Shown here: one piece after another, positions 9,701 through 12,700 of the stretch
Numbering within the stretch: position 1 is the first letter of the stretch
Layout of the letters: each line of letters starts with the position of its first letter
Assembly: GCF_046119375.1 (NCBI RefSeq)
Contig: NW_027362769.1
Location: 380,370,001-380,434,000 of the forward strand
Reading direction: 5' to 3'
Source: Phyllobates terribilis
Taxonomy: Eukaryota
DNA length: 64,000 nt
The notes under the pieces: generated by a model
Told to the model about the DNA's origin: nothing
Database searches by the model: none
What the model saw: the letters and a program-made list of their open reading frames with translations, nothing else
Translations under genes and position numbers: made by a program

Positions 9701-12700
9701 GGAGATAAGTGGCAGTTACTTCTGAGGCCGTTAGTCAGGGCAGGAGTCAGGTAACCAACACTTTGACCACTTACTCTCTTTTAACTATGTTTCAGTTAGC
9801 TCTCATTTTTTCTTCTATAGTCCTCCACTTTCTAATAACCCCTCAAATCCCTACACCTAGTAAAAAACTCTTCATCTCTCCCTCCATCCTCCCCATTCAT
9901 CTCACCTCCTCCTCCGAATTATTCCTCAACATTCAATCCTGCATCTCCAAACACTGACAGCCACCTCATGCTCTCTCTTGCTCCCACCTGCTAACACTTT
10001 CTCTGCTCCTCCTCACTGCTGGAGATATCTCTCCAAATCCTGGTCCTCCTCGCCATATCCCCAGTTACTTCTACCTCCTATCCACGACCTTCTACAAACA
10101 GTCGCAACCCTTCTAACCTTATACCCATCCAACTAATCCCCACTTCCTTAGTTGCTCTAACAGGAGCTCTATGGAACGCTCGCTCCGTCTGCAACAAACT
10201 TTCCTACATCCACGACCTTTTCATTACTAACAAACTTTCCTTCCTTGCCATTACCGAAACCTGGCTCACCCCCTCTGACACAGCCTCCCCAGCTGCACTT
10301 TCACATGGCAGATTCCACCTTTCCCACCCCCCCGCCCCAACGGCAAACATGGCAGAGGCGTAGGTTTTCTCCTGTCAGATACCTGCGCTTTCACCCAAAT
10401 ATCACTGCCACCCTCTGTTACACTCCCCTCTTTTGAGGTGCACTGTGTGCGCATCTTTTCCCCCTCTGACCTCCAACTGGCCGTCATTTACCGACCCCCA
10501 GGGCTAGCCCCCACTTTCTTAGACCACTTCACCACCTGGCTGCTTCCTTTCCACTGACATCCCCACTATCATAATGGGTGACTTCAACATCCCCATTGAC
10601 ACTTCCCACTCGTCTGTCTCTAAGCTCCTATCCCTCACTTCCTCCTTCGGCCTTGCTCAATGGTCTTCGGCAGCTACTCATAAAGATGGCCACACTCTGG
10701 ACCTCATCTTCACCTGCCTCTGTTCCCTATCTAACCATAACCTCCTCACATTCTCCACCCTCTCCTCTCCAAGTGCACAATCCCCACTCCACAAACTTAC
10801 ACACGCTCGCAGAAACCTCAAACACCTTGACCTACACTCACTCTCTGAATCCCTCCTCCCTCTTACAGACATAAATTCCTTACACAATGCAGATGTTGCT
10901 GCCGCTTCATATAACACCAGAATAGCTGCAGCTCTCTACTCGATCGCCCCTCTCACACATACCAAATCTCGCACAATCAATAGGCAACCCTGGTACACCA
11001 AACTTACTAAAGAACTGCGACGGGCTTCCAGGGTTGCGGAGAGGAGATGGAAAAGGTCTCACTCCATCGAGCACTTCATCGCATTCAAACAATCCCTCAC
11101 TATCTTCAAGTCCGCGCTCACTACAGCAAAACAAACCTACTTCTCATCTCTCATAACCCTAAACAGCTGTTTAACACTTTCAATTCTCTCCTTCGCCCCC
11201 CTGCGCCTCCTCCCTCTTTTCTCATCTCAGCCGGAGACTTTGCCTCATTCTTCAAGCAGAAGATTGACACCATCAGACAAAGCTTTTGCCTAAAGCCCGC
11301 ACAACCCCTCCTCATATCTACTCAACCTTCCTCCTCCAAACCCCACTTCTCCACCATTACAGAAGGTCAAGTCTCCTCTTTACTCTCCAAATCACACCTC
11401 ACCACCTGCAAACTTGACCCAATCCCATCCCACCTCATCCCTAACCTTACCACAGTCTTCATCCCAACCCTAACCCACCTCTTCAACCTGTCACTAACAA
11501 CCGGTGTCTTCCCCTCATGTTTCAAACATGCCGCAATCACACCCATCCTCAAAAAGCCCTCCCTTGACCCTTCCTCTCTGACTAGCTACCACCCCATATC
11601 ACTTCTCCTCTTTGCCTGAAAACTACTAGAACAACATGTCCACCTTGAACTGTCCTCCCACCTCTCCGCCTGTTCCCTCTTCGACCACCTACAATCTGGT
11701 TTCCGACCGCATCACTCGACAAACTGCCCTGACCAGTCACCAACGTCATACTAACTGCCAAATCCAAGCGACACTACTCCATCTTCCTCCTTCTGGACCT
11801 GTCATCTGCCTTCGACACAGTGGACCATTCCTTCTTACTACAGATTCTCTCATCTCTTGGCATCACGGACTTGGCCCTATCTTGGATCTCCTCATACTTA
11901 ACAGACAGGACATTCAGCGTCTCCCACTCACGCACCACCTCCTCATCTCGCCCCCTATCTGTTGGTGTCCCCCAAGGTTCAGTTCTAGGACCTCTGCTCT
12001 TCTCCATCTACACCTTCGGCCTGGGACAGCTCATAGAGTCTCACGGCTTCCAGTATCACCTCTATGCTGATGACACACAGATCTACCTCTCTGGACCCGA
12101 TATCACCTCCTTATTAACCAAAATCCCACAATGTCTGTCCGCCATCTCATCCTTCTTCTCTGACAGATTTCTAAAACTCAACATGGATAAAACAGAATTC
12201 ATCATCTTTCCACCCTCTCATTCATATCCCCCATCTGACCTAGCCATCAACGTCAATGGCTGTTCACTCTCCCCAGTCCCACAAGCTCGCTGCCTTGGGG
12301 TAACCCTGGACTCTGGTCTCTCCTTCAAACCACATATCCAAGCCCTTTCCACTTCCTGCCGACTCCAACTCAAAAATATCTCCCGGATCCGTGCATTCCT
12401 CAGCAAAGACTCTGCAAAAACACTAGTACATGCCCTCATCATCTCCCGCCTCGACTACTGCAAGCTCCTGCTCTGTGGCCTCCCTTCCAGCACTCTTGCG
12501 CCCCTCCAATCTCTCCTAAACTCTGCTGCTCGACTAATCCACCTGTCCCCCCCGCTATTCCCCGGCCTCTCCTCTCTGTCAATCCCTTCACTGGCTCCCC
12601 ATTGCCCAGAGAATCCAGTTCAAAACCCTAACCATGACATAACAAAGCCATCCTCAACCTGTCTCCTGCATACATCTGTGACCTAGTCTCCCGGTACTTA

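Follow-up and report, generated by a model that had tools for sequence, protein, structure and literature searches.

Viral class A 2A, or StopGo, sequences such as FMDV F2A carry an L-rich upstream hexapeptide of the LLLLSG type followed by a G-D-I-x-x-N-P-G-P core, both of which recur in the frog peptide described here, and the canonical core is written (D/G/C/N)(V/I)ExNPGP (Li 2026, PMC12846837). According to that paper, p14 is nearly always E among 2,465 viral octapeptides, with H rare and S absent from the functional viral variants; E14 stacks on A2062 in a cryo-EM structure, and the rare H variant can exceed 95% activity in its native context. At p14 the viral peptides have E, whereas the frog peptide has S.

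Among retroelements, both of the E-to-S peptides reported by Odon 2013 (PMC3708506) were inactive in lysate, and p14 mutants were suggested there to be relics of an ancestral 2A that had probably decayed. The closest described peptides are those of the Xenopus tropicalis elements L2-4_XT, L2-3_XT and CR1-L2-1_XT, which place GDISPNPGP behind a His-Leu helix at the ORF2 N-terminus, together with L2-2_XT, which has GDVSPNPGP. The table of Rao 2025 (PMC12338488) gives the first three as ending in GDISPNPGP, and all four elements are listed with activity N/A. No selection analysis of these elements and no account of their full leader was found in these two sources.

Three further reports bear on what such peptides might do. 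Luke 2013 (PMC3894237) put forward the hypothesis that, in elements lacking ORF1, 2A serves to downregulate ORF2. In sea-urchin NLR proteins with 2A-like signal sequences, partial skipping decides between the cytosol and the secretory route (Roulston 2016, PMC4981915). Finally, a pooled reporter screen of 3,271 peptides (Snell and Matreyek 2026, preprint, PMC13405545) describes eukaryotic 'leucine stall-helix' 2A-like peptides that, like the one studied here, have poly-Leu at -19 to -10 and an ORF2p context; frogs are not named in its main text, which also leaves signal peptides on the elements undiscussed.

Two L2 copies in the window

We analysed a window of 64,000 nucleotides from Phyllobates terribilis (contig NW_027362769.1). 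Across all six frames D-x-x-x-NPGP occurs just twice, each time as GDISPNPGP behind a Leu-rich stretch and encoded by the same 27 nt (Table 1). This bears out the first-pass annotation, which had described a hydrophobic helix followed by GD-x-x-x-NPG-P in both copies and had noted S in place of the canonical E; the viral consensus E is indeed absent, and with p14 = S the window peptide falls outside the canonical 2A core. The hydrophobic helical context upstream of the core is present, with 7 Leu in ten positions and a helix over residues 65–80 in a low-confidence model. The annotation had also cited Odon 2013 as precedent for 2A-like peptides at the N-terminus of L2 ORF2, and the precedent is closer than it claimed, three Xenopus tropicalis elements having the identical nonapeptide. 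The motif itself is thus already known, having been published for Xenopus L2-3, L2-4 and CR1-L2-1_XT.

Both sites lie in copies of an L2 element that encodes APE (PF03372) and RT (PF00078, both from Pfam), and the copies are 93.9% identical over 3,563 alignment columns. In copy 1, the ATG at 9787 is in frame with the motif and 86 codons ahead of the G|P site; a TGA at codon 57 lies inside the leader before the motif, and a 2-nt deletion near 10064, between motif and APE, takes the motif out of the endonuclease frame. In copy 2 the motif shares the APE frame, and a 1-nt deletion near 27374 separates the ATG at 27217 from it. The earlier placing of the motif in the endonuclease frame therefore holds for copy 2 and fails for copy 1. 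Relative to an intact natural relative, the ORF has nine indels in copy 1 and five in copy 2. Both copies end in TAA-repeat 3' tails, and both are dead, neither being able to make the leader plus APE-RT.

The first-pass annotation pointed to the persistence of the motif in both copies despite lesions elsewhere. As an argument this does not stand: for copies 93.9% identical, simulated chance survival of all nine residues in both is 0.14–0.30 (at 5–3% divergence), so their retention is no evidence of selection. Copy 1 is also interrupted by a DNA transposon, which we take from its translation to be of the Tc1 type.

Table 1. Positions in the window of the two L2 copies, their parts and tandem arrays
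Feature	Position	Strand	Evidence or remark
Copy 1, 5' UTR, upstream segment (tail of one promoter monomer and most of the next)	7616–8041	+	99% match to 5' region of family copies; 7752–8041 versus copy 2 26771–27060, 98.6%
DNA transposon, presumably Tc1/mariner-type, at TA within the TATA-like box of copy 1; not LINE	8042–9627	-	Inverted ends and flanking TA duplication at both junctions; 354-codon open frame 9311–8250
Copy 1, remainder of L2 element (final ~160 nt of the 5' UTR, the disrupted single ORF and a 3' UTR with terminal TAA repeats)	9628–13133	+	92% to intact natural relative; 9 ORF indels
Splice-donor-like conserved block CAG|GTAAC, 36 nt ahead of ATG	9738–9755 (copy 2: 27168–27185)	+	Families A, B, D, E, F
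Codons 1–20: ATG and hydrophobic N-terminus resembling a signal peptide	9787–9846	+	Kyte–Doolittle hydropathy
86-codon leader to predicted G|P site	9787–10044	+	TGA 9955–9957 breaks the copy-1 version
Leu-rich helix upstream of core motif, codons 67–78	9985–10020	+	Amino acid identity 0.63 among six families; helix 65–80 in low-confidence model
2A-like core GDISPNPG|P, copy 1	10021–10047	+	
Largest RT-domain piece, copy 1	11754–12305	+	PF00078, E 2.9e-27
Copy 2 of L2 element	26771–30604	+	ATG 27217; 1-nt deletion near 27374; 5 ORF indels
2A-like core GDISPNPG|P, copy 2, APE frame	27450–27476	+	
APE endonuclease domain, copy 2	27603–28205	+	PF03372, E 1e-7
Tandem array, 41 bp x79	17287–20574		
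Tandem array, 47 bp x70	41727–45015		
Tandem array, 31 bp x96	57974–60875		
Tandem array, 86 bp x9	4073–4838		

A single-ORF family and selection on its nonapeptide

The 10.6-Gb genome holds 3,221 candidates at the DNA level for the 5' part of the element and 49,922 at the protein level for the leader together with APE. We fetched 20 copies picked for long open frames; 16 have an intact 1058-aa ORF, and 14 of these 16 show a mean divergence of 0.3%. The L2 family thus includes a very young intact subfamily, and it is apparently active. In the 1058-aa ORF, PF03372 spans residues 130–330 and PF00078 residues 607–859, giving APE then RT in one frame; with the G|P site after residue 86 and APE from 130, the 2A-like sequence is N-terminal in ORF2, upstream of APE. 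Exact copies of the motif occur in 27 of 29 close copies. The 86-aa leader proposed in the earlier annotation is real at the level of the family, because in 23 of the 29 no stop or frameshift interrupts the reading frame between Met and the APE start, NPGP (residues 84–87) included; in the window copies it is broken, by the stop in copy 1 and the frameshift in copy 2.

No ORF1 was found in the 2.5 kb upstream in ten copies with long 5' ends, where the longest ATG ORF is at most 126 aa. The family has a single ORF, headed by the leader. Its 5' region consists of tandem monomers of ~540 nt or more each, an arrangement of promoter monomers comparable to that of mouse L1. A TATA-like box lies ~125 nt before the ATG and, in the other families where it was found, 330–510 nt before the motif; 5' truncation is variable, with ends from ~90 to >900 nt before the ATG. 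The start of RT is ~72% identical to that of L2-4_XT (87 of 120 residues, compared by eye). The element is an APE-type non-LTR retrotransposon, probably of the L2 clade, and belongs to the 2A-bearing single-ORF group (Odon 2013).

The 5' UTR monomers (~600–1200 nt before the ATG in one family copy; 7616–8041 in the window) contain internal repeats of 71–83 nt. Each monomer opens with a strong acceptor-like signal, made up of a branch-point-like GACTAAC, a pyrimidine tract and CAG, which could trap host transcripts.

Genome-wide, 5,980 sites encode GD[VI]SPNPGP, compared with 0 for the reversed control pattern. The canonical E form is encoded nowhere (control also 0), and a p14 codon with A, C or G in its first position is found at 80 sites (control 4), mostly single-base mutants as judged by eye. 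The first 30 S-type loci fell into at least six families, whose representatives share 65–79% DNA identity where they align, several pairs being unalignable. Among six family representatives, amino acid identity is 1.00 in the motif, with a four-fold-site identity of 0.34 (saturated), compared with 0.68 and 0.36 at the APE start; it is 0.63 in the Leu helix, 0.46 in a middle helix, 0.35 in the downstream linker and 0.17 in residues 1–20. The motif thus passes, between families, the comparison with neighbouring codons that the annotation had proposed as a check. With four-fold sites saturated and none of the nine residues changed between families, the serine form is under selection and has not decayed; protein-level purifying selection acts on every one of the nine, S and P included. 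The new point is that selection on the protein strictly maintains the serine form, held in 2013 to be probably decayed, across thousands of copies and many families, in a vertebrate genome that also holds a very young intact subfamily. This gives a tractable natural system for asking how LINEs that lack ORF1 regulate ORF2p and deliver it.

The six representatives had been selected through the motif, and we therefore drew a second sample of 30 loci by the APE start. In this sample 26 loci match at least 7 of the 9 residues (16 of them exactly) and four show no match; among 150 control windows the best was 4 of 9. A within-family test of shared versus singleton changes in the leader, underpowered and with rows that included loci selected as p14 variants, gave N/S counts of 24/22 versus 84/45 (p 0.16), and on APE the shared-versus-singleton test was significant.

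The motif extends well beyond this genome. A profile of the leader matched 25 proteins at E up to 0.001, 20 of which contain a D[IV]xxNPGP octamer, in 13 cases DISPNPGP; genera among the ten matches looked up include Anomaloglossus, Bombina, Staurois and Mantella. The protein P0001 hardly differs from family B in this genome and was not counted as independent support. The motif is kept in records from Bombina, Leptobrachium (as GDISPNPGP), Staurois, Mantella and Anomaloglossus, and also in Xenopus; Gastrophryne has GDIAQNPGP. More broadly, 36 of 120 ORF2 homologues have D[IV]xx[NS]PGP, with p14 being E in 9, H in 8, S in 7, A in 5, N in 5 and Q in 2, a spread which indicates that a relaxed p14 is normal for the retroelement form. 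Three proteins (P0134, P0138 and P0143) apparently have two tandem 2A-like motifs, with a hydrophobic helix before each. In none of 8 frog proteins checked do the 55 residues that follow NPGP contain an eIF4E-binding-type motif, YxxxxL-hydrophobic.

The hydrophobic N-terminus of the leader

Within residues 1–20, the in-frame Kyte–Doolittle peak over 15 residues is 1.83–2.61 in 7 of 7 representatives (shuffle p 0.005–0.096); comparable peaks occur in another frame of the T-rich strand in 3 of the 7 families, and one family-D copy reaches only 0.81 in its open frame. The N-terminus in the window's family has no basic n-region. Homologues from Bombina, Staurois and Leptobrachium likewise have a hydrophobic start. 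Judged by hydropathy, the leader N-terminus appears signal-like in most frog families, its hydrophobic character being kept and its sequence not.

The donor-like block upstream provides a check on the reading frame. Its distance to the motif in five families (A, B, D, E and F) is mostly 270, 279, 285, 312 or 315 nt, each divisible by 3. An in-frame ATG precedes the block in families B, D and E and is missing in family A. This spacing, together with the in-frame ATG in several families, indicates that the N-terminal segment is coding. The alternative that the hydrophobic stretch belongs to an intron was rejected on the conserved frame. No GT..AG joint near the leader was seen among the 15 of 34 joints listed, an uninformative result that comes from contigs of four runs of uncertain type covering the element.

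A hydrophobic N-terminus recurs among distant homologues, in 19 of 24 proteins that carry the motif compared with 13 of 47 that do not (p 5e-5), a difference inflated by kinship and by truncated or mis-called starts. The 13 include P0014, P0022, P0028, P0053, P0074 and P0102, which are ORF2-like and have a signal-like N-terminus and no 2A-like motif by the pattern used. Signal-like leaders may be more widespread than 2A.

The leader matches no Pfam family, and its best match in the ESM Atlas scored 0.85, with low recognition and in clusters without names. AlphaFold2 on a 15-row alignment returned three helices, one of them at 65–80, and no fold (pLDDT 61, pTM 0.23). Searches of the open-licence literature found no paper with GDISPNPGP in its main text, none on a signal peptide plus 2A in amphibian retrotransposon ORF2 and none on a predicted signal peptide in ORF2 of non-LTR elements such as CR1.

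What the leader may do to ORF2p

We consider it probable that the Leu helix and GDISPNPG stall the ribosome, producing a mix of read-through, drop-off and skipping that lowers ORF2p. The leader ends in a leucine helix and the non-canonical 2A-like GDISPNPG|P, at which the ribosome would likely stall; the stall would lower the output of endonuclease-reverse transcriptase, and probably only part of the APE-RT would be freed from the 86-residue leader. More weakly, unskipped chains could be routed to the ER by the hydrophobic N-terminus, leaving the skipped fraction as the working enzyme. The leader would then take over the damping role of an upstream ORF1 in two-ORF LINEs, as in the hypothesis of Luke 2013 (PMC3894237). 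Because its core departs from the canonical form, GDISPNPGP should not be filed as canonical StopGo, though it resembles the eukaryotic 2A-like throttles. The same system bears on whether the 2A-like peptides of retroelements are skips or throttles, and if the signal-like N-terminus works, ER routing would be added to LINE biology.

Support for a stall with mixed outcomes comes from the published screen (PMC13405545), whose classes are SVM calls with 86% accuracy on their own training set, obtained with 20-mers in human cells, and for which the authors ask individual confirmation; single rows are accordingly weak evidence and the trend across rows is stronger. The exact 20-mer of the window was not found in its peptide tables. 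We counted leucines in 16 of 17 GDIS rows and 14 of 14 GDVS rows, keeping the 20 of these 30 that end exactly in GD[IV]SxNPGP and dropping the other 10. By our count, all 8 peptides with at least four Leu in the first ten positions are non-inert (5 skipping, 1 falloff, 2 non-skipping with reduced protein), and all 12 with three or fewer are plain non-skipping; the window peptide has seven. Two rows match frog leaders, their frog origin being inferred from sequence identity. Row 2247 is the 20-residue leader end of P0124 from Bombina, identical to the window at 15 of 20 positions, namely the last 15, and is classed as non-skipping with reduced protein; row 1879 is the corresponding leader end of P0125 from Staurois, identical at 16 of 20, and is classed as skipping. 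Changing S to E produced no gain of skipping in either pair available, the E partner of row 1879 being non-skipping with reduced protein and that of row 2090 unchanged in class.

A stronger version, which we regard as possible though doubtful, is that single-ORF LINEs of the L2/CR1 group use a gate made of a signal peptide and a serine-type 2A that is weak by design. ORF2p made by read-through would go to the ER and be lost, and only the rare skipped chain would be the free retrotransposase, a built-in dose limiter that would replace ORF1 and would have been kept from Bombina and Xenopus to poison frogs. The sea-urchin NLR proteins offer a likeness to this gate; there, however, the 26-aa 2A is itself the signal, the genes are host genes and the core has the canonical E (PMC4981915), whereas the frog L2 has a separate hydrophobic, putatively signal-like segment ~65 residues upstream of the 2A, in a retrotransposon.

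Alternatively, no skipping occurs at all, and the site is either a pure stall or decay signal or, with two hydrophobic segments, part of a tether that holds ORF2p at the ER until a protease releases it. The class of row 2247 and the inactivity of the lysate peptides (PMC3708506) agree with this, as do the two hydrophobic segments present in most families and the finding that 'reduction' is the commonest class for ORF2p peptides in the screen, at 59% (PMC13405545). We nevertheless think it unlikely: five of the eight Leu-rich S-type peptides are classed as skipping, the Leu segment of ~12 residues is short for a membrane anchor, and action at the peptidyl-transferase centre best accounts for an unvarying NPGP.

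Efficient classical StopGo, in which most ribosomes release the 86-aa leader and then make APE-RT from Pro, seems quite improbable. N-P-G-P is invariant across families including the +1 Pro, row 1879 is classed as skipping, and the high activity of the H variant (PMC12846837) shows that a rare p14 residue can work in its native context; separation of the leader would also be useful given the signal-like N-terminus, and the 14 copies of mean divergence 0.3% are very young. Weighing against it are the absence of S from functional viral p14 variants (PMC12846837), the two inactive E-to-S peptides (PMC3708506) and the non-skipping class of row 2247, which shares the last 15 residues with the window.

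The suggestion that p14 mutants are inert relics of an ancestral 2A (PMC3708506) draws on the non-canonical p14 and the non-significant within-family test of the leader, but it is very improbable here, being largely refuted by the codon pattern of invariant amino acids with saturated synonymous sites and by an S that has not drifted across frog lineages while the flanking linker is only 0.35 identical. Conservation at the level of DNA or RNA, for a splice acceptor or a binding site as the pyrimidine-rich tract ahead of the motif and the conserved donor-like block might suggest, has next to no likelihood, because the third codon positions of the motif differ freely from family to family and because in five families block and motif lie a multiple of 3 nt apart, as in coding sequence.

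Besides the L2 copies and the tandem arrays in Table 1, the window has a second open frame at 2012–1134 on the minus strand, which from its translation we presume to be Tc1-like, and overlapping long ORFs at 46986–50627, whose translations, we assume, resemble those of a DIRS-type tyrosine-recombinase retrotransposon.
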